DNA from: an uncultured bacterium
Lineage (GTDB): Bacteria; Patescibacteriota; Saccharimonadia; Saccharimonadales; 2-12-FULL-41-12
DNA length: 64,000 nucleotides
Direction of reading: 5' to 3'
Assembly (NCBI GenBank): GCA_963834265.1
Contig: CAWIAU010000001.1
Coordinates: 469,523 to 533,522 of the forward strand
The translations under genes and the position numbers were made by a program. This document shows positions 1-44,363 of the stretch, in pieces (the stretch's first letter is position 1; each line of letters begins with the position of its first letter). The notes under the pieces were generated by a model. That model saw nothing but the letters and a program-made list of their open reading frames with translations, searched no databases and was not told where the DNA came from.

Positions 1-35
1 ATCAGGAACTTTTCGGGCCTGAGACAATCCATGGA
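1..35 (-). repeat. Window-truncated copy of the modular intergenic repeat family: inverted start of module Z (atcaggaacttttcgggcctgag) followed by the ccatgg junction motif
   Basis: Exact reverse-complement match to ctcaggcccgaaaagttcctgat at 31526-31548 and a near match at 5215-5237; seen directly in the sequence. Confidence 0.6.
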
Positions 36-610
36 AAAATTACTAAAGATAATTTTGATTTATAAGAAGTTATTGAGAGTTTGGGGGTTGTTGTCCGGAA
101 AGTATTGCTAATGTGCCGGGGCTGACTCTGAGTGTTAGTGTTCTGTCAAAATGACGTCCTATGGCCGGATGTGTGCCCGGATCTCCTAATTCTCTTAACC
201 CAGCGGATATCTGTGCAATGTGTAAACCTGCCGTGGCGCCTTCTTCTCCCATTAAACTTGTAACCGGAGGTAATTCCGGCTCAAATTGTCTACCTTGCCC
301 CCCCTCGTAGTTGGCCTCTGGCATAAAGTTCTCTCCTATAATTTTCTCTTAACAATGAGATTATACCATAGGATTCTTATGCATCTTTTTTTGATCAATT
401 ATGTCGAAGTCCATGGATTTTACCAGCATTTGCCGGAACGGATTGATGCTCAATCAAATTGGCTTAAATCACTGATACGAAATCAGTTTTGCTTCTCATA
501 TAAATAATAAAGCGGGACCGACCAAAGGGAGTCTTTCGTATCAAAGGCTATTCTGGTATTGGGTGGCAGACATTTGATTGGCAACCGCCGCGGCTCTTTT
601 GAATACTTTT

Positions 611-670
611 CTAGCTGAAGAGAAAAGTAGGTCGAGCCGACCTTCAGGTCGGGCTGAAACTGATTTTTCT
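611..670 (-). repeat. Inverted degenerate copy of the module X start (aaatcag-ttcag-...cctgaaggtc...) of the intergenic repeat family. It also forms a GC hairpin plus T-run that could terminate topA on the minus strand
   Basis: The reverse complement aaaatcagtttcagcccgacctgaaggtcggctcgacctacttttct aligns with 56261-56310 (ttaaatcagcttcagaccggcctgaaggtcagcccgacttcctttttg). Confidence 0.5.
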
Positions 671-703
671 AATCACTAATCCCTAAAACCTAATCACTTA
701 CTC

Positions 704-2998
704 TCACTTCTTCGCAGTTTTGCGTTTGAAGGAGCGTTTTTTGCGGGCCGGGGCTTTGGCCAGCATTTCTTTGGCTGTGGCCTCGTCAATATCTTCAGCT
801 TTCATATCTTTGGGGATGCGGGCATTCTTTTTGCCGTCGGTAATGTATGCACCGTAGGGGCCATTGACAATTGATACGCCGTTTTTGAATTGCGCCACAT
901 ACTTATTTGCATCTTTTTCAAGTTTTTCTTTGTAGAGTTGAAGAGCTTCTTCTATTGTAATTTGCATAGGATCAAGGGGTTTAATCGACACAAATAACTT
1001 GTCTACCTGAATATAGGGACCAAAGCGGCCAATGTTAGCCTTAATTTCTTTGCCGTCCTCGGTCTTCCCTACTGTACGCGGCAATTTGAACATATCCAGC
1101 GCCTGCTCGAAAGTAACTGTCTTGAGGTTTGCACCATCAGGCAAAGGCGCAAAGACCGGCTTCTCATCATCTTCTGTCTCACCCATCTGCAACATCGGGC
1201 CGTAACGGCCGTAACGGGCAACAATTGGCTTGTTTGTCTTTGGATCAACACCCAGAGCTCTGGACTTGCTTGTTTCCTGCCGGTTAGCAGCATCAGATTT
1301 GGCAACAAGCGGATGAAAAGATTCATAAAATGTAGCAATAGTCTTATTCCAACTCTGTTTACCTTCGGCAATTTTGTCAAAATCAGCTTCGGCTTTGGCC
1401 GTAAAGTCGTAGTCCATAATCGGCGCGAAATACTGCAGCAAAAAATCTGTCGTCATATCGGCCAGATAGGTTGGTAATAACTTGCTCCGCTCTACGCCGG
1501 TTAACTCTGTAGTTGTTTCGCGGGTGACAATCTTGTCTTTCAGTGTCAGATTCCGGAGATCGCGACTACGTCCCTCTGAGTCAGCTTTCTCGACATAACC
1601 GCGACTTTGAATGGTAGAAATAGTCGGGGCGTAAGTGCTGGGTCGCCCGATACCGAGCTCTTCCAGCTTTTTCACCAGTGAGGCCTCTGAGTATCTTGCC
1701 GGTGGACGATCGAACGATTCTATCGCATGTATATAATTCAGTTTGAGGTCGCTTCCATCTGCTACCTGCGGCAATATGGTATCGTCTTTGCCACCACCAT
1801 AGACGCGAAGATAACCATCAAAAGTCAGAACTTCACCTTTAGCCAGTAATACTTCCGGCCGGCCGGAGATGCTTATAGTAAGCTCTGCCCTTTCCAGTTG
1901 CGCACCGGACATCTGACTGGCCAGAGCACGGCGCCAGACAAGCTGATATAAACGATTTTGCTGTTCATCTGCTCCGGCACTAAGAATATTGAAATCCGTA
2001 GGTCTGATAGCTTCGTGGGCTTCCTGTGCGCTTGCGTTCTTTGTCGTGTATTGGCGGGTAGTGTGATAATTACTACCGTAAGTCTTTTCAATATATTGAG
2101 CGGCTGCTGATAAAGCTGTATTCGAGAGGTTCGTACTGTCGGTACGCATATATGTGATATGGCCATTTTCGTATAATCTCTGCGCCAGAGTCATGGTCTG
2201 CCGAACGCTGAAGCCAAGTTTGGCCGAAGCTTCCTGTTGCAGACTACTTGTCGTAAAAGGGGCCGCGGGGTTGCGAACGCCGGCCTTTTTCTCAGATCCG
2301 GCAACAGTGAAGGTGCTGTCTGCTACGCCATTCAGAAAATCTTCGACAGTCTGTTCATCTGGTAATTGCTTTGGCAGTATGGCTTTGAGCTCATCACCTC
2401 CCGCATCGAAATAAGCGCTGACTTTAAACTGCGAGTTACTGGTGAACTTCTCAATCTCACGTTCGCGCTCGACAATTAGCCGTACTGCAACAGACTGTAC
2501 GCGGCCGGCACTGAGCCCGGTCTGGACCTTTTTCCACAGCACAGGAGACAGCTCATAGCCTACGAGACGGTCCAGCACGCGCCGTGCCTGCTGGGCGTCT
2601 ACCAGATTTATATCAACGGTACGGGGATTTTTGACAGCCGCGTCAATTGCAGGTTTAGTGATCTCATGGAATACAATCCGTTTAGTAGTCTCAGGTTTAA
2701 GTCCCAAAGCATGGCACAGATGCCAGGCAATTGCTTCTCCTTCCCGGTCTTCATCAGAGGCCAACCAGACTGTTTCAGAGCTTTTGGCCGCTTTTTTGAG
2801 GTCATTTACAACTTTTTTCTTGTCGTCTGCTATTTCGTAAGTTGGCTCGAAACCGTTTTCTTTGTCAATTGAGAGACCTTTTTTAGGTAAATCACGGATA
2901 TGGCCGAAACTGCTCATGACCGTGAAGTCACTACCGAGATATTTCTCTATGGTTTTGCCCTTGGCCGGGCTCTCAACAATTACCAGATTTTTACTCAT
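704..2998 (-). CDS. topA: DNA topoisomerase I (type IA) with a Toprim domain, core domains and a Lys-rich C-terminal tail
   Basis: 764 aa. N-terminus LVIVESPAKGKTIEKYLG...EGEAIAWH is the Toprim/TopA signature; overall length and motif order are typical of TopA. Confidence 0.93.
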   Translation of the reverse strand: MSKNLVIVESPAKGKTIEKYLGSDFTVMSSFGHIRDLPKKGLSIDKENGFEPTYEIADDKKKVVNDLKKAAKSSETVWLASDEDREGEAIAWHLCHALGLKPETTKRIVFHEITKPAIDAAVKNPRTVDINLVDAQQARRVLDRLVGYELSPVLWKKVQTGLSAGRVQSVAVRLIVEREREIEKFTSNSQFKVSAYFDAGGDELKAILPKQLPDEQTVEDFLNGVADSTFTVAGSEKKAGVRNPAAPFTTSSLQQEASAKLGFSVRQTMTLAQRLYENGHITYMRTDSTNLSNTALSAAAQYIEKTYGSNYHTTRQYTTKNASAQEAHEAIRPTDFNILSAGADEQQNRLYQLVWRRALASQMSGAQLERAELTISISGRPEVLLAKGEVLTFDGYLRVYGGGKDDTILPQVADGSDLKLNYIHAIESFDRPPARYSEASLVKKLEELGIGRPSTYAPTISTIQSRGYVEKADSEGRSRDLRNLTLKDKIVTRETTTELTGVERSKLLPTYLADMTTDFLLQYFAPIMDYDFTAKAEADFDKIAEGKQSWNKTIATFYESFHPLVAKSDAANRQETSKSRALGVDPKTNKPIVARYGRYGPMLQMGETEDDEKPVFAPLPDGANLKTVTFEQALDMFKLPRTVGKTEDGKEIKANIGRFGPYIQVDKLFVSIKPLDPMQITIEEALQLYKEKLEKDANKYVAQFKNGVSIVNGPYGAYITDGKKNARIPKDMKAEDIDEATAKEMLAKAPARKKRSFKRKTAKK

Positions 2999-3150
2999 GC
3001 ATCTCCGGATTATTCAAATAAAGTTGTAATGGTTAGTATACCCTACTCTTATAAAGGACAAGTTTCAAGCCTACGATGCTTGCTAAGCCTAGTCAAGAGG
3101 TTTGGAATAATCCTTATGGTATAATATTATCAATCTAAAGAGAGATCAAA

Positions 3151-4821
3151 ATGTATAAAAGCTTTATAAACGGGTTGATACTCGCAGTATTGCTGACAGC
3201 AACTTTGTTGCAGGCCGCTACTCCTGTCTTTGCAGCCACATCAATCAGACTGTACCTGAATCCCGGGTCAAGGACTGTTACGAACGGTACGGCTTTCGCT
3301 GTACAGATGCGTCTGAGCAAAAACGACAACACATTTGTCAAACACGTCCGGGCCAGCCTCAACTTTCCTGCAGATAAGCTGGCAGTGAGTTCGATCTCTT
3401 CTGCGGGCAGCTACTTTATTGTCCCGGAGGGCGTCGGGGCAACTTATAATAACAGCACCGGAACGGTTACATACGAAGGCGGTAATGATGATTCTGCAAA
3501 TGCAGGAGACTTTCTGGTCGCAACCATCAACTTCGTGACTAAGAGTCCGGGCACTGCGGGTGTGATATTTAATGGTCAGTCCAGGGCTACCTTTACGAGC
3601 AATGGCGAGAATCGTCTGACTGGTACAACAGGCGGTACATATACTATTAGTTCTCCACCCGCGCCCCCTCCACCGCCAGGCCCGTCACCACCCCCCCCGC
3701 CCGGTCCGTCTCCGTCACCACCCCCCGCCGGCAATCCGGTTATACCGCCAATCCTTTCTATACCTGCGCCAGCATCACCTCTGTCACCTGGTGGTATCAG
3801 GCCCGCACCAGGCGCCCCTACATCAACTCCTGCCAATCCACCACCAGGTACAGCTCCTGATACTGAAGATATCAACAATGAATATTCTCCTGAATCCGGT
3901 CCCGTATTTCAGGTAAGTAACATACAAGTGACTGAAGTTACCAGCAGTTCGGCTATTATCAGCTGGGAGACAGCTCAGGGGACTACCGGTACAGCAATAA
4001 GTTATGGAACTGATGCCAAAAACCTCAGGAATGTTCGTCAGGCAGGCGATCCACTGTCTGATGTGAGAATAAAAATTGATAAACTTCCCTCCGGTAAGAC
4101 AATATATTATGAGATAACTGCTGTAGATGGAAGTCAACAGGCAGTACATAAGGGCAGTTTCAAAACCGTTAACGGACCTTTCTGGGCTTCGAATCTTTTC
4201 CGGGGTTTCATGATTCTAACGGGGCTGATACTACTTTTAGGATTATTATTCTTTCTGTTCAGAAAAAATCATCATCGTCGTCATGCAAAATCCGGTCTTT
4301 CTCCGGCGCTTCAGAATACCAGAGCTCCATCACCGTCTGAAGCATCAGCAATTCTGAGCGCAGTAGCTACCTCTCACAAAAAGCAGACGGCAAAAATCAG
4401 TTCGCCTGCTCCATCACCGCCACCTCCGAAAATAATGCCCTTGCCGCCACCTCAGCTACCGCATATTGATCCGGCAATTAGCAAATTCGCGCCGATACCG
4501 GAATCCGTCACGAATATAGAGCCACAGCCACAATCTTCTGCGCATAAGCACGAAAAGTCTTCGGTGCCGGCTCCTCCTAATGTACCTGTACTTCCTCCCG
4601 CGACCACTCCTGAGCCTATCCCGTATACCGGCAAGGCTTCTACCTCTGCAAATCCCAGCACGCACTGGCCATGGACTGCCGAAGGCCAGACTACTCCGGC
4701 TGGTGCCGCTGCGACGAAATCAAAGCTACAGGAATATAAGGACGAACCCGACATGTTTGAGCTTGGTGAAGCCCGCCTGAAACAGGAAGAAGCGGAGCTG
4801 GCAAAGAAAAATCCAAAATAG
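3151..4821 (+). CDS. Secreted or membrane-anchored surface protein. It has a signal peptide, a cohesin-like Ig-fold domain, a polyproline linker (PPPPGPSP repeats), a fibronectin type III-like domain, a TM helix and a Pro-rich cytoplasmic tail
   Basis: N-terminal hydrophobic signal (LILAVLLTATLLQAATPVFA); the pattern GDFLVATINFVTKSPGTAGVIF resembles cohesin-like domains; VSNIQVTEVTSSSAIISWE is an FN3-like start; hydrophobic segment FMILTGLILLLGLLFFLF. Confidence 0.7.
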   Translation: MYKSFINGLILAVLLTATLLQAATPVFAATSIRLYLNPGSRTVTNGTAFAVQMRLSKNDNTFVKHVRASLNFPADKLAVSSISSAGSYFIVPEGVGATYNNSTGTVTYEGGNDDSANAGDFLVATINFVTKSPGTAGVIFNGQSRATFTSNGENRLTGTTGGTYTISSPPAPPPPPGPSPPPPPGPSPSPPPAGNPVIPPILSIPAPASPLSPGGIRPAPGAPTSTPANPPPGTAPDTEDINNEYSPESGPVFQVSNIQVTEVTSSSAIISWETAQGTTGTAISYGTDAKNLRNVRQAGDPLSDVRIKIDKLPSGKTIYYEITAVDGSQQAVHKGSFKTVNGPFWASNLFRGFMILTGLILLLGLLFFLFRKNHHRRHAKSGLSPALQNTRAPSPSEASAILSAVATSHKKQTAKISSPAPSPPPPKIMPLPPPQLPHIDPAISKFAPIPESVTNIEPQPQSSAHKHEKSSVPAPPNVPVLPPATTPEPIPYTGKASTSANPSTHWPWTAEGQTTPAGAAATKSKLQEYKDEPDMFELGEARLKQEEAELAKKNPK

Positions 4822-4852
4822 ATACATTTTTATAATTTAAATCCAGTTTTAT

Positions 4853-5430
4853 GACGACTTGAAAAGTCGCCCCGAGTCACTTTCTTGTGCCAACAAAAAC
4901 CATGTTCTTCCGACGAAGAACCAAGTCGATACTTTTACCAACAGCTGCAAAAGTATCCAAAAAGAGCCGCAGCGGTTGCCAAAACAAAGACTGTCACTCA
5001 AAACCAGGTTAACCTGTGACATGGAAAACTCCCTCTGGTCGGCCCTGTTCTATTTTATTAGCAGAACGAACAGGGCTGGTTCCATGCCAATGATTCAGAT
5101 CAACCTGAATGAGCGTCAATCCGTTTTGCCAAATGCTGGATGGAACCATGGACTAAAGTATTTTTATTTATAAATAATCCAAAATTATCTTTAGTAATTT
5201 TTCCTTGGATTTCTCTCAGGCCCGAAAAGTTCCTGAGGAGCGAGTGCCAAAAGCACAATTAGAGCCGAAGCAATGTTTGAGACATTTCCTCTTTGAGTAT
5301 AGTTAAGAAATGTTGAGTTTGCTGAGCATTGTGGTTTTGACAATGAGATCCTAAAGAATCTTTTCGTCGCCTGTTGTTTCTTTGCCTACTTTCTGGTCAA
5401 CACAAGAAAGTAGGTTGAGGTGACTCTAAA
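4853..5430 (+). repeat. Archetype full copy of the modular intergenic repeat family (X+Y+Z contiguous). Module X 4853-4990 has a tgccaac-loop hairpin, the gttcttccgacgaagaac hairpin and gttgccaaaa. The middle segment carries actccctctggtcgg plus a variable hairpin. Module Y 5110-5152 is gttttgccaaatgctgg...ccatgg. Module Z 5215-5430 is caggcccgaaaagttcctga...gtgccaaaag...hairpin cctactttctggtcaacacaagaaagtagg
   Basis: Module-by-module similarity to 28035-28290, 28975-29050, 30645-30895, 31515-31737, 56255-56520, 1-35 and 611-670; seen directly. Confidence 0.8.
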
Positions 5431-5467
5431 GAGTCAACTTGAAATGGGTTTTATAAAAATAATAACT

Positions 5468-6328
5468 TTATTTGAGTTTCCAGTGATTATTTCCCAGCGG
5501 GTGGAGGACGCCTTTGATTTCCAGCATAGTCAGATGTTGTTGGAATTGCTCTACGGGCAGATCGCTTTTGAGTAGCAGTTCATGGCCGTCCTGAGATCCG
5601 CCCCGAAGATGGACCAGTATAGCCTCTTCCTCTACATTTTCGGCGTAATACTTATGTTGTGTCTCTTGTGTTGTGATATTAATATTCATTGCCTCAAAGA
5701 TATCCCCGATACATGTCACGGGCGTAGCGCCTATTTTGATCAGGTTATTCGTACCGGCACTGGTCGGACTGGTAATGTTGCCGGGTACAACCAGTACCGT
5801 TTTGCCTTGCTCCATGGCAAAACGAGCAGTATGCAGACTACCACTTCTTTCAGCAGCTTCTGTTACCAGCAAAGCATCGGAAAAGCCGGCAATGATCCGG
5901 TTGCGCTCAATAAAGCTCCCCTGATGCGGACGCGCTGCATTTTCGTATTCGCTTACCAGCAAACCACCGGATTCTGTGATTTGTCGTGCCAGACTGTGGT
6001 GACTGGCAGGATAGATAGCTTTGACCCCGCCCGGGAGCACTGCAATAGTCGTGCCATGTGTATCAAGCGCTGCTTTATGAGCAATGCTGTCTACTCCCAA
6101 AGCGAGTCCGCTGACTATTACAATTCCCTGCCTTGACGCAGCAGATGTCAGATCGGTGGTAATTGTTCTGCCGTACGGAGTGATATTTCTTGATCCGACA
6201 ACACCAAGTACCGGATTCTGAAGTAATATTTCCAGGTCAGCCCCCATGCAGGTTAATTGCTTTGGTATCTGAGGCAACTGCTTTAGTCTTTCAGGGAGTT
6301 CGTTACAAGATAATATTGTCGGTTTCAT
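5468..6328 (-). CDS. dprA: DNA processing protein A (DprA/Smf), Rossmann-like DNA-binding domain
   Basis: 286 aa; VVGSRNITPYGRTIT...VIVSGLALGVDSIAHKAAL...LPGGV...ERNRIIAGFSDALLVTEAAERSGSLHTARFAMEQGKTVLVVPG are typical DprA motifs. Confidence 0.88.
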   Translation of the reverse strand: MKPTILSCNELPERLKQLPQIPKQLTCMGADLEILLQNPVLGVVGSRNITPYGRTITTDLTSAASRQGIVIVSGLALGVDSIAHKAALDTHGTTIAVLPGGVKAIYPASHHSLARQITESGGLLVSEYENAARPHQGSFIERNRIIAGFSDALLVTEAAERSGSLHTARFAMEQGKTVLVVPGNITSPTSAGTNNLIKIGATPVTCIGDIFEAMNINITTQETQHKYYAENVEEEAILVHLRGGSQDGHELLLKSDLPVEQFQQHLTMLEIKGVLHPLGNNHWKLK

Positions 6329-6370
6329 TTTTTCATCAAGTTGTTATTTATACAAAATAAGTTTAAGGTA

Positions 6371-6399
6371 TTGACATAAAGTAATATTTTTGCTATTAT
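6371..6399 (+). promoter_or_regulatory. Near-consensus sigma70-type promoter: TTGACA, 17-bp spacer, TATTAT
   Basis: TTGACA at 6371-6376, 17-nt spacer, TATTAT at 6394-6399; no ORF follows for more than 500 nt. Confidence 0.7.
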
Positions 6400-6405
6400 T
6401 GCAAC

Positions 6406-6757
6406 TTGTAAGTCCCGTTTAGCGGGATTTTCGTACCTTACACCCAATGTTTGTCCGACAGGCTTGCCTGGGAGACATTCGTTAGATTGTTTTAGAGTTT
6501 ATACTAAGTTGTACCCTCCGCTTAGTATATATTATCTTACGACTTGTCGTGAGAACTCTAAAACAAGCTAACCCCTTTAACTACAACCATTAAAGTGAGT
6601 CTGAATGATTCCGTCTTACGACGGAGACACAGGTCCGTATATACTACCTGGACATTGATGTTTCGCTGGGTGGGTTGAAGGGTGTTTTTTGAGCTTGACA
6701 GGTTCGAGCTCTGTAAGGAGCTTCCAGCGGTGCCCACCCCCTCTGGAAGCTCCTTTT
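6406..6757 (+). ncRNA. Candidate structured noncoding RNA (about 350 nt) of unknown class, transcribed from the 6371 promoter and ended by an intrinsic terminator. It contains multiple internal hairpins (for example tatactaag...cttagtata 9 bp, cttacgac-ttg-gtcgtgag, tccgtc-ttac-gacgga) and a long-range helix gttttagagtt/aactctaaaac
   Basis: The promoter-to-terminator unit contains no ORF of 60 aa or more on either strand, has dense secondary structure, and sits 185 nt upstream of the next gene, which has its own TATAAT box. Confidence 0.5.
6717..6757 (+). terminator. Intrinsic terminator: 11-bp perfect stem ggagcttccag/ctggaagctcc with a 15-nt loop, followed by TTTT
   Basis: Perfect inverted repeat at 6717-6727 and 6743-6753, then a T-run at 6754-6757. 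Confidence 0.7.
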
Positions 6758-6949
6758 AGTTATTATTGCCCACCCGGCCATAATTTTTTGCTAAAAATTT
6801 GCCTGGGTTTGCCTCATCGTCGACACATTTCCGGACTGACATAAGGCCACTGGCATTTTTCACCTTCGGAAGCTCATTGTACTTATAATTTAATTATATA
6901 TTTTGCGAAAAGTACATAACATACTATAATAAGTAACAGATGTAAGGAA

Positions 6950-7423
6950 ATGTTTATGAAACTATTATCCATTGAGATGCCGGAACGTACATTGCGAGCA
7001 AGAATCGTGGCTCAATTAGAACCAACTGAACAGATACGATTATATAACCTGGCTCAGGCTTCGGCAGTTACTGCGTTCTATGATTTGATCGGGTACCCTT
7101 TGAACAGGAATATTGCATTTAGTACAAGAAAGTATAATTTTGATTTTCCCGATGGGGTCGTTTTGACTAGCAGGTCAATTACGCCCCCGGGGCTAAACAC
7201 TATATTATTAGGGCTCTTAACCAGAGATAGCGGAGAGATCACTGATTTGGGCCATAAAATTGATCTGATAAATCCTGACGGGTCTGTGGGCGAGAGAGTA
7301 TTCAACGGGCTACTGACGCATTCCCCTGAAGGAATAGTGAGCCCCTCCGAAGTTGCTACGATGGAAGCCGCTGCGGATATACTGGCAGTAGCATGTGTAG
7401 AATCAGGAATTGGCTTACGTTAA
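6950..7423 (+). CDS. Hypothetical protein (157 aa)
   Basis: ORF with an AAGGAA RBS 8 nt upstream and TATAAT at 6925-6930; no recognisable motif. Confidence 0.5.
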   Translation: MFMKLLSIEMPERTLRARIVAQLEPTEQIRLYNLAQASAVTAFYDLIGYPLNRNIAFSTRKYNFDFPDGVVLTSRSITPPGLNTILLGLLTRDSGEITDLGHKIDLINPDGSVGERVFNGLLTHSPEGIVSPSEVATMEAAADILAVACVESGIGLR

Positions 7424-7437
7424 TATTTTTTTAGCTT

Positions 7438-8094
7438 TTAGATTATGAAGCTGCGGGTTTCGGCATTCAGCCGGGCGTTCCCGTAGATATATTCTGTCAG
7501 AATACTATTTGTTTCCCGTGTGAGAGAATCGAGATGCTTTGTTTCCTCTGTTGTGAACCTAGCGAGTACAAAATCTGTACTATCGATTTGCTCTGGTTTT
7601 TTGGGTCCGATTCCTATCCGCATACGTCCTGATTCTTCCCCGCCATGCTGAATGATCGATTTGATACCGTTGTGTCCGGCAGGACTGCCGCCAATTCGTG
7701 TGCGAATCTGGCCGAAATCTATATCCAGTTCATCGTAAACAATTAGTGTTTTGGAAACATCAATGCGGTAAAAATGCTGTACCGCCTGCATCGCTTCCCC
7801 GCTCAGGTTCATAAGGGTGACAGGCTTGATCAATACGACACGTACACTGCCCATAGTAAGGATAGAGATCATACACTTCAGATCTTTTTTGATAATCCAG
7901 TCCGGAAATTCCTGCTTATCAGCAAACTGATCTAACACCGCAAACCCGATATTATGCCGGGTGCCTTCATATTCTTTGCCAATATTTCCCAGTCCCACAA
8001 TCAATACATTGGTTTCGAGCCCAACAGAGTAGATAGGTATACTACTGCCAACATCGGGTTTTTTCTGAAATAATGCCATTAAAAAGCTCCCCAA
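7438..8094 (-). CDS. pth: Peptidyl-tRNA hydrolase. The true start is probably internal, near 8076
   Basis: LIVGLGNIGKEYEGTRHNIGF...MNLSGEAM...GHNGIKSI are Pth family motifs; the N-terminal 18-25 aa of the ORF are probably not translated. Confidence 0.85.
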   Translation of the reverse strand: MGSFLMALFQKKPDVGSSIPIYSVGLETNVLIVGLGNIGKEYEGTRHNIGFAVLDQFADKQEFPDWIIKKDLKCMISILTMGSVRVVLIKPVTLMNLSGEAMQAVQHFYRIDVSKTLIVYDELDIDFGQIRTRIGGSPAGHNGIKSIIQHGGEESGRMRIGIGPKKPEQIDSTDFVLARFTTEETKHLDSLTRETNSILTEYIYGNARLNAETRSFII

Positions 8095-8171
8095 GAGTTA
8101 ATTTGCCATTGAGGATTAACAATAAGCAATAAATCAGCGATGAACGATTGGCTATGAAAGTCTGTTCCCGA

Positions 8172-8226
8172 ATTGTAAATTGCTAACTGATAATTCATTG
8201 AACATTGTAAATTGCTAACTGATAAT
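8172..8226. repeat. Perfect 23-bp tandem direct repeat attgtaaattgctaactgataat (two copies, 32-bp period) in the der-pth intergenic region, upstream of pth
   Basis: Copies at 8172-8194 and 8204-8226; seen directly. Confidence 0.8.
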
Positions 8227-8239
8227 CTGAAAAATAAAT

Positions 8240-9616
8240 TCATGATTTATTTTCTTTGGTAGGGCTTTCGCCGTGTTTGTGGCGGCCGGCTTTTTCGATG
8301 AACCATAACTGGACAGATGTGCCCTCGTAGCCGAATTCACGGCGCATTTCTGTCTCCAGGTATCGTTTGTAGCTCCAGTGAAGAAATTTGGTATGCGCAC
8401 CGAATATTTTGAATGCAGGAATCGGATTATCATCTTCCTGAACGATATAGTTGAGCTTCGGTGCGCGGTTCCTGAGTCCGGCGGGCGGATGCTTCTCTGC
8501 CACACGGCGCAGCCAGCGGTTAAGTTCGGTGGTTTTGAGCCGTTTGGTACGTTGTTCCATAATATCCATGACAAGAGTATAGATCTGAGTTACATTCTGA
8601 CCCGTTATGCTGCTGGTAAATATTACGGGTGCCCATGGAATAAACTCATAATTACTCTTAATGCGGGGTGTTAATGTGTCCCTGGTATAAGCGTCTTTGT
8701 CTTCGACATCATCCCATTTGCTCACCACGAGAATGAGCCCTTTTCCTGCTTCTTTGATCATACCTGCGATTTTCTGGTCCAGCTGGACATTCAGTTCGCT
8801 GGCGTCCATGAGCAGTAAGCACACGTCTGCCTCTTCGATGGCCGACAATGCGCGGATTACACTGAACTTCTCTACTCCCCGCTCTATCTTACCACTGCGT
8901 CGTATGCCTGCCGTATCGAGTAATTCAATCTCACGCTGGTCGTATTTGATAACTGTACGGTTGATGTCGCGAGTGGTGCCCGCCTTGTCAGCTACAATTG
9001 CCTGTTGCTTCTTAGCTAAGGCATTGAACAGGCTGGACTTGCCGACATTCGGACGTCCCAGCAAAGCTACTCTGATCCGGTCATCCGCTTCGCGAATAGT
9101 GCTCTTAGGCAAAATACCGGACAGATAATCCAGCAAATCATCGAGCCCACGTGCTTGTGTGACAGAGGTAGCAAAAATTTTTTTAATACCCAGTTTTTGA
9201 AGATGATCCGGGCTTTGGCCACGGACTTTGTCAACCTTATTGCCGATCAGTATCACTGGTTTCTTGCTTTTGAGAGCCATTTTGGCAACACGCCGGTCCT
9301 CCTCAGTAATTTGCAGATGTGCTTCGACTATAACTATGATCACATCCGCGCTATCTGCTGCCTGTGCAATCTGTTCCTGTATGGTAAATTCAAAGTCGTC
9401 CTCCGGACTTTTCATACCAGCTGTATCTACCAGCCAGAAATTATGCAGGTCTTTCCCATGCCCTATGGTGGCTTTGGCAATGATACTGTCGCGTGTTGTA
9501 CCAGGTTCATCAGCCACAATGGCTTCGCGTCGACTCAGAACAGCATTAAAGAGACTGGATTTACCCACGTTTGCTCGTCCCACAATTGCCACAATAGGCA
9601 CTTTCTTACTACTCAT
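8240..9616 (-). CDS. der: Ribosome-associated GTPase Der/EngA (tandem GTPase domains plus a KH-like C-terminal domain)
   Basis: Two P-loops (GRANVGKSSLFN and GRPNVGKSSLFN), two DTAG motifs, 458 aa. Confidence 0.92.
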   Translation of the reverse strand: MSSKKVPIVAIVGRANVGKSSLFNAVLSRREAIVADEPGTTRDSIIAKATIGHGKDLHNFWLVDTAGMKSPEDDFEFTIQEQIAQAADSADVIIVIVEAHLQITEEDRRVAKMALKSKKPVILIGNKVDKVRGQSPDHLQKLGIKKIFATSVTQARGLDDLLDYLSGILPKSTIREADDRIRVALLGRPNVGKSSLFNALAKKQQAIVADKAGTTRDINRTVIKYDQREIELLDTAGIRRSGKIERGVEKFSVIRALSAIEEADVCLLLMDASELNVQLDQKIAGMIKEAGKGLILVVSKWDDVEDKDAYTRDTLTPRIKSNYEFIPWAPVIFTSSITGQNVTQIYTLVMDIMEQRTKRLKTTELNRWLRRVAEKHPPAGLRNRAPKLNYIVQEDDNPIPAFKIFGAHTKFLHWSYKRYLETEMRREFGYEGTSVQLWFIEKAGRHKHGESPTKENKS

Positions 9617-14083: not shown

Positions 14084-14158
14084 GGTCCCGTCGTCTAACG
14101 GTCAGGACACCAGGTTCTCATCCTGGCAATAGGGGTTCGATTCCCCTCGGGATCACCA
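14084..14158 (+). tRNA. tRNA-Glu (anticodon CUC), 75 nt with encoded CCA
   Basis: Cloverleaf: acceptor GGTCCCG/CGGGATC, D-arm GTCT..GGAC, anticodon stem CCAGG/CCTGG with loop TTCTCAT, T-arm AGGGG-TTCGATT-CCCCT; close to the E. coli tRNA-Glu scaffold. Confidence 0.9.
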
Positions 14159-44273: not shown

Positions 44274-44363
44274 TGGCGGAGGGAGAGGGATTCGAACCCT
44301 CGATGGGGTTGCCCCCAAACCGCCTTTCCAAGACGGCGCCATAGGCCACTAGGCGACCCCTCC
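44274..44363 (-). tRNA. tRNA-Ser (anticodon GGA), 90 nt with a long variable arm and encoded CCA
   Basis: The reverse complement gives GGAGGGG...anticodon stem CCGTC/GGCGG, loop TTGGAAA, variable arm TTTGGGGGCAACCCCATC, T-arm GAGGG-TTCGAAT-CCCTC, acceptor TCCCTCC-G-CCA. Confidence 0.85.

Follow-up and report, generated by a model that had tools for sequence, protein, structure and literature searches.

The window analyzed here, a 64,000-nucleotide stretch of DNA from an uncultured member of the Saccharimonadia, harbors at positions 6371 to 6757 of its plus strand what is most likely the stand-alone gene of a new family of structured noncoding RNAs; no expression data are available. The neighboring genes are dprA, topA, pth, and der, with dprA divergent and pth convergent relative to the RNA gene. 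The features of the gene and of its presumed transcript are collected in Table 1.

The gene begins with a near-consensus promoter, the −35 element (TTGACA) of which occupies positions 6371–6376 and the −10 element (TATTAT, with TG just before it) positions 6394–6399. With a score of 11 out of 12, it ranks at the top of the 14 promoter-like sites present between 5000 and 9000 (8.5 ± 2.5 expected), and TTGACA-N15-19-TAnnAT is found at the equivalent position in 85 homologous loci. Transcription would likely start near 6405–6407, as inferred from the promoter. At the opposite end, a 13-bp stem, formed by AAGGAGCUUCCAG (6715–6727) and CUGGAAGCUCCUU (6743–6755), closes a 15-nt loop, CGGUGCCCACCCCCU (6728–6742), with an invariant core, GGUGCCCACCCCC (6729–6741), and is followed by a UUUU run that ends at 6757. 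This terminator is not picked up by a simple terminator scan because the latter accepts only loops of up to 8 nt. The transcript ends are inferred solely from the promoter and the terminator.

No ORF of 60 or more amino acids overlaps 6400–6757 on either strand, the longest being 59 aa (minus) and 51 aa (plus). A protein-coding gene can be rejected, as the longest ORFs in 77 homologues range from 20 to 98 aa and are inconsistent in strand and frame. The predicted fold has a minimum free energy of −132.7 kcal/mol, versus −91.7 ± 5.4 kcal/mol for shuffled sequences (z = −7.6), and none of 100 shuffles folds as well; the z-score of the minus strand is −5.9. Downstream, a second promoter-like site, TTGCGA-16-TATAAT (6903–6930), lies 5′ of a 157-aa ORF.

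The original prediction, made from the sequence alone, had proposed an independent promoter-to-terminator unit for a structured RNA of about 350 nt without an ORF, and this proposal is supported. Its claims of a TTGACA-17-TATTAT promoter, of the absence of any ORF reaching 60 aa on either strand, and of a downstream gene with its own TATAAT box all held, as did that of a strong intrinsic terminator, although the stem measures 13 bp and not 11 bp. The claimed long-range helix gttttagagtt/aactctaaaac also held; it is longer than proposed (6481–6499 with 6554–6572) and covaries in relatives. The prediction would have been refuted by a lack of conservation or by assignment to a known Rfam family. 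Neither applies: the region is strongly conserved with covarying helices, and the Rfam search assigned no family. The size of the family and the presence of its invariant terminator loop in phages were beyond the reach of that prediction.

Table 1. Features of the putative RNA gene, in positions of the window
Feature	Position	Strand	Description
Near-consensus sigma-70-type promoter	6371..6399	+	TTGACA, 17-nt spacer, extended −10 (TGc TATTAT)
Hairpin H1	6410..6430	+	AAGUCCCG-UUUA-GCGGGAUUU
Segment S1, single-stranded, C-rich, conserved	6433..6445	+	GUACCUUACACCC; family consensus GCACCUUAUAUCCCCC
Variable hairpin, optional	6446..6480	+	In some family members, missing from many
Long helix P2, 5′ strand	6481..6499	+	GUUAGAUUGUUUUAGAGUU; partner 6554–6572
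Hairpin A	6501..6528	+	Loop displays UACCCUCC (6512–6519), in nearly all family members
Hairpin B, variable	6535..6554	+	Third arm at the P2 junction
Long helix P2, 3′ strand	6554..6572	+	AACUCUAAAACAAGCUAAC; partner 6481–6499
Helix Pm, 5′ strand	6573..6581	+	CCCUUUAAC, within the block CUAACCCCUUUAAC
Variable middle domain	6582..6668	+	Several hairpins, including GAGUCUGAAUGAUUC at 6597–6611
G-rich block	6669..6682	+	GGUGGGUUGAAGGG; includes GUUGAAGGG, 3′ strand of Pm
Variable hairpin V	6691..6711	+	Contains the T-arm-like sequence of the original prediction
Terminal hairpin (intrinsic terminator)	6715..6757	+	13-bp stem, 15-nt loop, UUUU

The family comprises at least 110 homologues, with 77 distinct full-length RNAs of 320–540 nt (about 350 nt in the window). 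Metagenome homologues were collected with an exact 20-mer that yielded at least 120 matches, about 110 of them true homologues; neither the true breadth of the family nor the variability of the block containing the 20-mer is captured in this manner. All dprA-anchored relatives whose upstream sequence extends far enough (DprA identity of 53–74%) carry the RNA gene between dprA and pth. Membership in the Saccharibacteria rests only on the names attached to the DprA homologues, and a DprA search of the GTDB representative genomes yielded only distant non-relatives (L001–L003). No description of the RNA was found in the full-text literature searched, and Weinberg et al. 2017 list a single motif from TM7, lysM-TM7, which is a small 5′-UTR element. 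In all likelihood, this is a previously undescribed gene for a folded noncoding RNA at a fixed genomic spot in Saccharibacteria. No gene for SmpB or another RNA partner was found among ten ORFs of 150–190 aa in the window.

The helices are maintained by compensatory change, and the plus strand is the RNA. All-against-all column covariation on a MAFFT alignment was too noisy, and anchored, ungapped helix counts were used instead. In the terminal hairpin, compensatory changes occur at all 13 of its 13 pairs across 85 distinct host hairpins, with 94.5% of cells canonical as opposed to 44–56% when the partner strand is slid, and with 35 G-U versus 3 A-C combinations. For P2, 91% of cells are canonical in 66 distinct sequences (33–51% with the partner slid), and the anchored counts identify compensatory changes at 7 of 20 pairs; RNAalifold predicts 18 pairs, 7 of them changed on both sides. 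The loop-proximal stem of hairpin A covaries at four of six pairs (AAGU/ACUU, UGGU/ACCA, ACGU/ACGU). G-U pairs occur far more often than A-C in the helices, which identifies the plus strand as the RNA. The criteria for an independent noncoding RNA gene that can be judged from sequence (a promoter, a terminator, no conserved ORF, and compensatory changes on one strand) are fulfilled. All 110 host loci share an identical loop in the terminal hairpin, variants differing by one or two substitutions are absent, and each host locus has exactly one such hairpin.

Within P2, a purine-purine mismatch, A6486/G6567, is conserved as A-A, A-G, or G-A in the 66 sequences. A CRISPR/tracrRNA-like or transposon guide RNA, an idea prompted by GUUUUAGAG, was rejected: there is no array and no cas, tnpB, or iscB gene alongside, the neighbors being those named above. 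GTTTTAGAGTT occurs only as the two P2 strands, and relatives have the covarying versions GUUUAAGAG, GUUCUCCGAG, and GUUUGCAACG in its place.

The remaining elements differ in their degree of conservation. H1 has GUAAG/CUUAC-like closing pairs and is variable in sequence, occurring at the same place in nearly all family members. The ACCCUCC of hairpin A is present in 117 family loci. The position of hairpin B is occupied by a hairpin in all members, unrelated in sequence and length and with inserts of 60–90 nt in some clades. The middle domain ranges from about 50 to more than 250 nt across the family, with recurring hairpin positions. Hairpin V has undergone compensatory changes in one relative (L007, GGCC.../...GGCC), is missing in L005, L013, L024, and others, and is unrelated in sequence in other clades. 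The near-invariant and mostly unpaired segments in the sample are UACCCUCC, CUAACCCCUUUAAC, GGUGGGUUGAAGGG, and the loop core GGUGCCCACCCCC. The block CUAACCCCUUUAAC lies inside the collecting 20-mer, so its constancy among the metagenome homologues is in part a matter of selection; it is also identical in six aligned dprA-anchored sequences. The G-rich block is constant in nearly all 77 full-length RNAs, with a few one-base variants in its G-runs.

Three further pairings may connect these invariant segments, yet all remain no more than possible, since the bases involved do not vary and covariation support is absent. In Pm, CCCUUUAAC is complementary over 9 bp to GUUGAAGGG (6674–6682); this helix is predicted by RNAalifold and by all single-sequence folds, and both of its strands are invariant and without covariation. 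The GCACC/GUACC of S1 is complementary to GGUGC in the terminator loop, a pairing that lies beyond covariation testing because the loop is invariant. Lastly, GGUGG(G) is a candidate partner, no more than tentatively, of CCCACC in the loop, and the predicted duplex between the G-rich block and the terminator loop reaches −20 kcal/mol. RNAfold gives an alternative in which GGGGU pairs locally within the middle domain. In one locus (L042), GGUCGAG replaces GGUGGG while the terminator loop is unchanged. A pairing of S1 (GCACCUU) with the AGGGUGU that ends the G-rich block also gives −20 kcal/mol by RNAduplex, yet it was rejected, as S1 shows no compensating changes for the natural variants at the AGGGUGU site (GGGAG, GGGAA, GGGUA, and GGGUC).

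The RNA is not a member of any Rfam 15 family. With gathering thresholds, a search of the window returns only three tRNAs, and at E ≤ 10, positions 6250–7000 (751 nt) and 20 homologous loci produce only chance matches of microRNA models to hairpins. The Rfam models for OLE, ROOL, GOLLD, raiA, HEARO, and riboswitches have no match here. The earlier claim that the RNA cannot be assigned to tmRNA, RNase P, 6S, or SRP RNA therefore held against both Rfam 15 and ARAGORN.

The most obvious alternative identity is a divergent tmRNA (ssrA) of this lineage, in which GCU AAC CCC UUU AAC...UAA would serve as the tag and ACAGG-UUCGAGC-UCUGU as the T-arm. The size and the stable-RNA-style promoter are consistent with this identity, and a frame encoding ANPFNYNH* is present at 6567–6593 (and not at 6575–6601, as originally given). 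Phages often copy or target tmRNA genes. However, ARAGORN is negative both in the window and in 132 related loci (757 kb), and no Rfam tmRNA model matches at E ≤ 10 in 21 family members. The letters of both the tag-like frame and the T-arm-like sequence are present, but neither is conserved. The frame (RCU AAC CCC UUU AAC) meets a stop after five codons (TNPFN*) in 29 of 77 sequences and extends for 6–82 codons in the remainder, five of which have no stop; there are no conserved C-terminal residues, and neither of the alternative frames brings an improvement. The T-arm-like bases are the flank of a variable hairpin that is missing in L005 and others. The 5′ and 3′ ends are unpaired, and the 3′ end is the covarying terminator hairpin. 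A tmRNA is thus all but ruled out. Of note, the tag-like frame falls within the variable middle domain.

A very divergent RNase P, SRP, or 6S RNA can be discounted with nearly the same assurance. These RNAs are often hard to detect in bacteria of the Candidate Phyla Radiation (CPR), and CPR RNase P RNAs have diverged and can miss the Rfam cut-offs (PMC8172020). Moreover, GGGUUGAAGGGUG resembles GGGUGAAAGGGUG of E. coli and AGCGGUGCCC resembles the SRP Alu loop of B. subtilis; both similarities are short. Nevertheless, no model for these RNAs matches at E ≤ 10 in the 751 nt or in the 20 homologous loci, whereas CPR RNase P RNAs are still detected by RF00010 with lowered cut-offs (PMC8172020). 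There is no P4-type pairing of a 5′ GGAAAGUCC-like with a 3′ ACAGAA..GGCUUA-like segment, as expected of RNase P, and no SRP helix-8 motif among the conserved elements. In contrast to 6S RNA, which is about 180 nt, the present RNA is multi-branched and 320–540 nt long, with unpaired ends and no rod with a central bubble.

The terminator loop could pair with the upstream G-rich segment, which gives the RNA the formal anatomy of an attenuator and would fit a cis-regulatory leader or riboswitch for the downstream gene. The gene that follows is not conserved, however, being the 157-aa ORF with its own promoter-like site in the window and other small ORFs or none elsewhere; most often, it is the convergent pth that comes next. 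In addition, the loop pairing would leave the terminator stem intact, and the hairpin also occurs as a free module in phages. A leader function is for these reasons virtually excluded.

The terminal hairpin is a separable module that combines an invariant 13-nt loop with a freely varying stem and that occurs alone in at least 43 phage hairpins. A 15-mer of the loop has 87 matches in IMG/VR, which fall into two clearly separated groups: 28 have 0–5 flanking pairs, and 43 distinct hairpins have at least 7. These 43 hairpins are built on 40 different stems, none of the viral stems is identical to any host stem, and 98.5% of their cells are canonical as opposed to 32–47% with the partner slid. G-U combinations outnumber A-C by 31 to 3, and therefore selection at the RNA level is favored. 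Control 15-mers from hairpin A and the G-rich block have 57 and 62 viral matches, respectively, none in a hairpin or family context, and no hairpins with this loop occur in 1.03 Mb of control viral DNA. A U-run lies 3′ of the hairpin in 74 of 104 host copies and in 12 of 46 phage copies. At E ≤ 10, Rfam returns nothing relevant for ten phage hairpin loci.

The contigs that bear these hairpins are real phages, with genes for endolysin, terminase, primase, a DnaD-like protein, and RecT. The hairpins are found in mini-sRNA units, between tRNA genes (two cases), and between structural genes. About eight terminate promoter-driven mini-units, in which a promoter and a short leader precede the hairpin and its U-run. 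In eight related phages, the hairpin follows an 80-aa ORF and precedes a gene with a strong Shine-Dalgarno sequence, with stems that covary among the eight. One contig, L207, contains the complete RNA gene along with another hairpin, inverted and located 5′ of a recT-like gene; phage genes adjoin the RNA gene at the edge of the viral contig. Evidence for the host of the phage contigs is limited to this physical link. A tblastn search revealed no close relatives of the phage-contig proteins among named phages, and the search with the endolysin of another contig (L218) returned homologues without an organism name, giving no indication of the host.

An invariant hairpin shared by host and phage could also be explained by integration, with the RNA gene as attB, in the way that tRNA and tmRNA genes are used, and the phage hairpins as attP. 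Phages tend to integrate at the 3′ end of a conserved RNA gene, with crossover in a loop between symmetric stems. Host and phage have the same loop without any difference, and in L207, phage genes lie directly beside the RNA gene at the viral contig edge. However, no integrase was found beside the hairpins examined (about ten neighboring proteins annotated), the neighbors being endolysin, terminase, primase, replication, and recT genes. The shared position and covarying stems in the eight related phages, the hairpins that terminate mini-units or lie between tRNA genes, and the lack of a second, directly repeated copy in any host locus also speak against an attachment site. The same applies to the absence of viral stems identical to host stems and to the G-U bias, which favors RNA-level selection. 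The attP idea is weakened without being excluded, and it is considered improbable.

Another possibility is a base-pairing regulatory sRNA in which the C-rich loops (CCUCC, CCCC, and CCCACCCCC) are seeds for G-rich ribosome-binding sites, in the manner of RsaE/RoxS or 6C RNA, and the rest is scaffold. Three near-invariant, apparently unpaired C-rich segments, one with the anti-Shine-Dalgarno core CCUCC, agree with this proposal, as does the enrichment of CCUCC in the 70 nt that precede phage hairpins (10 of 42 versus 1.6 ± 1.2). On the other hand, an RNA of 320–540 nt that forms about ten helices and contains invariant G-rich blocks goes far beyond a seed carrier, and the 13-nt invariant loop is longer than a typical seed. 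GGAGG precedes 2 of 54 ORFs in the window, in which many genes look leaderless. An sRNA of this type is hence considered unlikely. The related idea of a Shine-Dalgarno sponge is weakened by the rarity of strong Shine-Dalgarno sequences in the window. Some of the CCUCC occurrences near phage hairpins are tRNA ends or coding sequence.

The favored reading is that of a trans-acting structured RNA with a terminal hairpin that serves as a recognition module and has been copied by phages; this is likely, with the function itself being inferred. Folded on its own or as an RNP, the RNA would act in trans and not as the leader of a neighbor, although no function has been shown. The invariant loop would be the recognition handle, for which no binding factor has been identified. 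Its reader may be a conserved host factor or, alternatively, the invariant segments of the RNA itself in a pseudoknotted core, with S1 GCACC pairing with GGUGC and GGUGGG with CCCACC. By placing the hairpin on mini-sRNAs and within operons, phages would exploit this recognition, compete for it, or block it, and the C-rich loop UACCCUCC, with its anti-Shine-Dalgarno core CCUCC, may provide a further contact surface. The shared loop is taken, by inference, to indicate an RNA-level link of unknown nature between host and phage.

A bolder version, which is possible but no more than that, holds that the RNA is the receptor of its own terminal hairpin, the loop of which would dock on GCACC and GGUGGG to give a closed core. 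Free phage copies of the hairpin, on mini-sRNAs and within mRNAs, might then dock in trans on the host RNA or on its protein partner. If true, hosts and phages of the Candidate Phyla Radiation would meet at an RNA-level interface of a new kind, which could amount to the hijacking of an essential RNP or the evasion of an RNA-based sensor and which would center on a housekeeping RNA class without a counterpart in other bacteria.

Saccharibacteria and other CPR bacteria account for a large share of bacterial diversity, have tiny genomes, and possess almost no characterized RNA biology. A multi-helix RNA retained at one locus throughout the sampled relatives, with invariant blocks of 13–20 bases, likely plays a central role. 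The 13-base loop, which many phages copy unchanged, can serve as bait for a partner, as a marker that ties uncultured phages to their hosts, and as a model in which to study RNA mimicry between the two. Genetic tools exist for cultured Saccharibacteria (PMC10633639).

Among known systems, OLE, ROOL, GOLLD, and the raiA motif RNA resemble the present RNA in being stand-alone RNAs of several hundred nt, rich in covarying helices and with nucleotides that do not vary at junctions or in loops, in being restricted to one lineage, and in having a function that cannot be deduced from their neighbors. GOLLD and ROOL are, like the present RNA, linked to phages or prophages. However, there is no sequence or model similarity, and the lineage is a different one (Saccharibacteria/CPR for the present RNA). 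The present RNA is further distinguished by its fixed housekeeping synteny, dprA-pth, and by the presence in phages of only one hairpin module instead of the whole RNA. It shares with tmRNA its size, a strong promoter, a pseudoknot-prone architecture, and a piece carried or matched by phages, but lacks the tRNA-like domain, a conserved tag frame, and pairing of the 5′ and 3′ ends.

Phage RNA mimics are known as pseudo-ToxI, directed against ToxIN, and as RNA anti-CRISPRs that copy CRISPR repeats. Like the hairpins described here, they reproduce a structured element of a host RNA in short form, in some cases within small promoter-driven units; in contrast, the host RNA in the present case is syntenic, apparently housekeeping, and without adjacent toxin or cas genes. 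RsaE/RoxS and the actinobacterial 6C RNA also display conserved C-rich motifs in hairpin loops, including the terminator loop. These RNAs are 90–120 nt long with two or three hairpins, whereas the present RNA spans 320–540 nt, with long-range helices, invariant G-rich segments, and no Rfam similarity. The terminal hairpin itself resembles intrinsic (Rho-independent) terminators in its G+C-rich stem, upstream A-tract, and U-run, the last of which most phage copies lack. Ordinary terminators have short, unconserved loops, while that of the present hairpin measures 15 nt, with 13 invariant bases.

The interval between dprA and pth holds an independent, conserved, structured RNA gene; no expression data are available. 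Its promoter (TTGACA, a 17-nt spacer, and TATTAT, with a preceding TG) scores 11/12 and ranks best among the 14 promoter-like sites found in 5000–9000 (8.5 ± 2.5 expected). On either strand, ORFs overlapping the RNA stay below 60 aa, the longest being 59 aa (minus) and 51 aa (plus). The terminator stem is formed by AAGGAGCUUCCAG and CUGGAAGCUCCUU, which enclose a 15-nt loop and are followed by UUUU; the hairpin is missed by the terminator pattern scan because only loops of ≤8 nt are allowed. The plus strand folds at −132.7 kcal/mol compared with −91.7 ± 5.4 for shuffled sequences (z = −7.6), and the minus strand gives z = −5.9. The original prediction of a promoter-to-terminator unit at 6371–6757, with a TTGACA-17-TATTAT promoter and no ORF of ≥60 aa, is thus upheld; its terminator also stands, except that the stem is longer than the 11 bp proposed.

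The gene order in the window is topA, a 556-aa proline-rich ORF, dprA, the RNA, a 157-aa ORF, pth, and der. DprA homologues at 53–74% identity were traced to their own contigs. All traced loci with enough upstream DNA (L005, L007, L008, L010, L011/L012, L133, and L134) preserve the order der, pth, gap, dprA, topA, and in each the same RNA element fills the pth–dprA gap, divergent from dprA and convergent with pth. Most DprA homologues with a name come under Saccharibacteria or Saccharimonadales, and it is from these names that the RNA family takes its taxonomic label. As a separate observation, the N-terminus of the 556-aa ORF resembles a signal peptide, its proline-rich tracts are long, and a membrane segment lies at the C-terminal end; in most examined relatives topA and dprA are adjacent or have just one small ORF between them.

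The family was sampled by exact match of metagenome contigs to the conserved 20-mer AACAARCTAACCCCTTTAAC. At least 120 matches were obtained, of which about 110, itself a lower bound for the family, are true homologues. Five loci (L018, L069, L101, L115, and L130) were discarded, their matches being coincidental or coding and lying in AT-rich DNA that is unrelated; in the first four, the 20-mer falls where a small ORF (MEEENKLTPLTITFQ...) begins. Promoter, body, and terminator lie within reach in 85 loci, yielding 77 distinct RNAs of 320–540 nt (median 406) that share no conserved ORF.

Features of the RNA gene and its surroundings, with covariation counted over ungapped, anchored helices
Feature	Window position	Description	Covariation (distinct sequences; compensatory pairs; canonical vs slid partner; G-U/A-C)
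dprA	5468–6328 (−)	gene upstream of the RNA	
556-aa ORF	3151–4821 (+)	between topA and dprA	
5′ hairpin	6410–6430		
S1		conserved single-stranded segment; GCACCUUAUAUCCCCC in most members, GUACCUUACACCC in window	
Optional hairpin		between S1 and P2	
P2 long helix	6481–6499 with 6554–6572	closes three-way junction	66; 7/20; 91% vs 33–51%; 63/15
Hairpin A	loop motif 6512–6519	in P2 junction; loop shows UACCCUCC in nearly every member	61; 4/6; 84.7% vs 27–52%; 17/9 (stem)
Hairpin B		variable; third arm of P2 junction	
Block CUAACCCCUUUAAC		between hairpin B and middle domain	
Middle domain		variable, multi-hairpin	
Block GGUGGGUUGAAGGG	6669–6682		
Optional hairpin	6691–6711		
Terminator hairpin	6715–6727 with 6743–6755	3′ end of RNA	85; 13/13; 94.5% vs 44–56%; 35/3 (stem)
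tRNA Glu-CUC	14084–14158 (+)		
tRNA Leu-CAA	33130–33214 (+)		
tRNA Ser-GGA	44274–44363 (−)		

The RNA is conserved and its helices covary. The long-range helix GUUUUAGAG/CUCUAAAAC of the original prediction is confirmed as part of P2 and is replaced in relatives by GUUUAAGAG/CUCUUAAAC, GUUCUCCGAG/CUCGAGAAC, and GUUUGCAACG/CGUUGCAAAC. P2, which retains a purine-purine mismatch, is independently recovered by RNAalifold, with both sides changed in 7/18 pairs. The excess of G-U over A-C pairs identifies the plus strand as the RNA. CCCUUUAAC and GUUGAAGGG share a 9-bp complementarity that all folds predict to close the middle domain; this helix remains a model prediction, both strands being invariant and so without covariation support. 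Most family members (e.g., L014, L021, and L029) carry AUUCUAACA directly upstream of GUUAGAUUG, and this copy is missing from the clade of the window (6446–6480). GUUAG can pair with CUAAC on either side, the upstream copy or the one downstream that closes P2, so an alternative fold is possible. In one homologue, L074 (6040–6370), a middle-domain hairpin (CCCCUCCCAAUUUUGC...GCAAAAUUGGGAGGGG) encloses an insertion of ~300 nt bearing a degenerate GIY-YIG nuclease-like ORF, and the remainder of the RNA is intact.

The RNA is assigned to no known family. Within the 64-kb window, Rfam 15 at gathering thresholds reports three tRNAs and nothing else, ARAGORN likewise finds three tRNAs and no tmRNA, and genes for rRNA, tmRNA, RNase P, and SRP are lacking. 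Permissive Rfam scans (E ≤ 10) return only chance microRNA-model matches to hairpins in 6250–7000 and nothing for this RNA in 20 homologous loci. Two tmRNA-like elements had been pointed out and neither survives. In 29 of the 77 sequences, the tag-like frame starting at RCU AAC CCC UUU AAC meets a stop after five codons; in the others it runs for 6–82 codons, five sequences lack a stop, and no C-terminus is shared. The supposed T-arm is one flank of the optional hairpin at 6691–6711, which shows compensatory changes in L007, is absent from L005, L013, L024, and others, and has an unrelated sequence in other clades. The 5′ and 3′ ends of the RNA also do not pair. A tmRNA identity is rejected, and so are RNase P, SRP, and 6S, in line with the earlier failure to assign the RNA to any of the four. 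RNase P RNAs of the CPR are diverged yet detectable with RF00010 at lowered cut-offs (Lui et al., PMC8172020); nothing of such kind is seen for this RNA. The family is absent from Rfam and, as far as searched, from the literature.

Nearly all full-length RNAs share an unchanged GGUGGGUUGAAGGG, the exceptions being a few one-base variants of the G-run and L042, where GGUCGAG replaces GGUGGG. The two bases ahead of the block and those past GGG vary freely. The terminator loop core GGUGCCCACCCCC is identical in 110/110 host hairpins, without any variant within two substitutions in hairpin context. Each locus contains it a single time, as does the window, whose 64 kb hold no other match with fewer than three mismatches. 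Inside the RNA, the loop has two candidate partners: GGUGGG for its CCCACC and the GCACC of S1 for its GGUGC; S1 alternates solely between GCACC and GUACC, preserving a G-C or G-U pair. Both loop pairings are possible, being inferred from sequence alone. An alternative partner for S1, the end of the G-rich block, was also tested and ruled out, as natural variants show no compensation.

In hosts and phages alike, the terminal hairpin is a separable module under RNA-level selection. The sequence GGTGCCCACCCCCTC has 87 matches in 86 loci of the IMG/VR viral contigs, and these matches fall into two classes. Chance background accounts for 28 matches with 0–5 flanking base pairs, and in 43 distinct hairpins a run of ≥7 uninterrupted pairs encloses precisely the loop CGGUGCCCACCCCCU. 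In the first eight pairs of the latter, 98.5% of cells are canonical vs 32–47% with the partner slid, across 40 different stems (G-U 31, A-C 3). Control 15-mers from the hairpin A loop and the G-rich block give 57 and 62 viral matches, respectively, none in a hairpin or family context, and the loop hairpin does not occur in 1.03 Mb of control loci. No Rfam family matches at the 10 phage hairpin loci scanned (E ≤ 10).

Genes for endolysin, terminase, primase, a DnaD-like protein, and RecT mark these as genuine phage contigs. In eight related contigs, the hairpin directly follows a conserved ~80-aa ORF and precedes a strong-SD gene, with differing stems. It also terminates mini-units composed of a −10 box, short leader, hairpin, and U-run (L143, L164, L193, L196, L210, L211, L218, and L219), lies straight after a −10 box (L138 and L158), or occupies the spacer separating two tRNA genes (L167:9501–9531 and L168:7459–7495), from which tRNA processing may free it. 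The mini-units resemble mini-sRNA genes in about eight phage contigs (e.g., L143:1923–1959, L164:12427–12459, L196:7752–7780, and L218:133–167); their −10 box is TGATATACT or TATAAT, their 25–55-nt leader often contains a small hairpin, and those of L164 and L196 are clearly homologous.

The remainder of the RNA is found in one viral contig only, the 38-kb L207 (region 1–8444), which has a complete gene (7943–8365) with just 80 nt between it and the contig end. Upstream, two DNA methyltransferases, an FtsK-like/exonuclease fusion, and recT replace dprA, and a second, inverted hairpin copy (6856–6886) lies in the leader of the recT-like gene. After this copy comes GGAGGGU, a complement of the hairpin A loop.

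The RNA is inferred to act in trans. Its loop would serve as a recognition handle for a conserved reader, which could be a protein of the host or the invariant core of the RNA itself, and phages may copy the loop to use or disturb this recognition; the hosts of the phage contigs are not established. A rival explanation holds that the hairpin is a phage attachment site (attP/attB). No viral stem is identical to any host stem, and this explanation is weakened, though not excluded.

A second rival, that the RNA is an SD-binding sRNA, is weakened because SD sequences are scarce in the genome, GGAGG preceding only 2 of the 54 window ORFs. Many of these ORFs have a TATACT/TATAAT-like box 7–12 nt ahead of the start codon without a Shine–Dalgarno sequence (e.g., 9616, 10965, 41144, 54107, 60388, and 62971); together, these boxes and the scarcity of Shine–Dalgarno sequences suggest widespread leaderless mRNAs.
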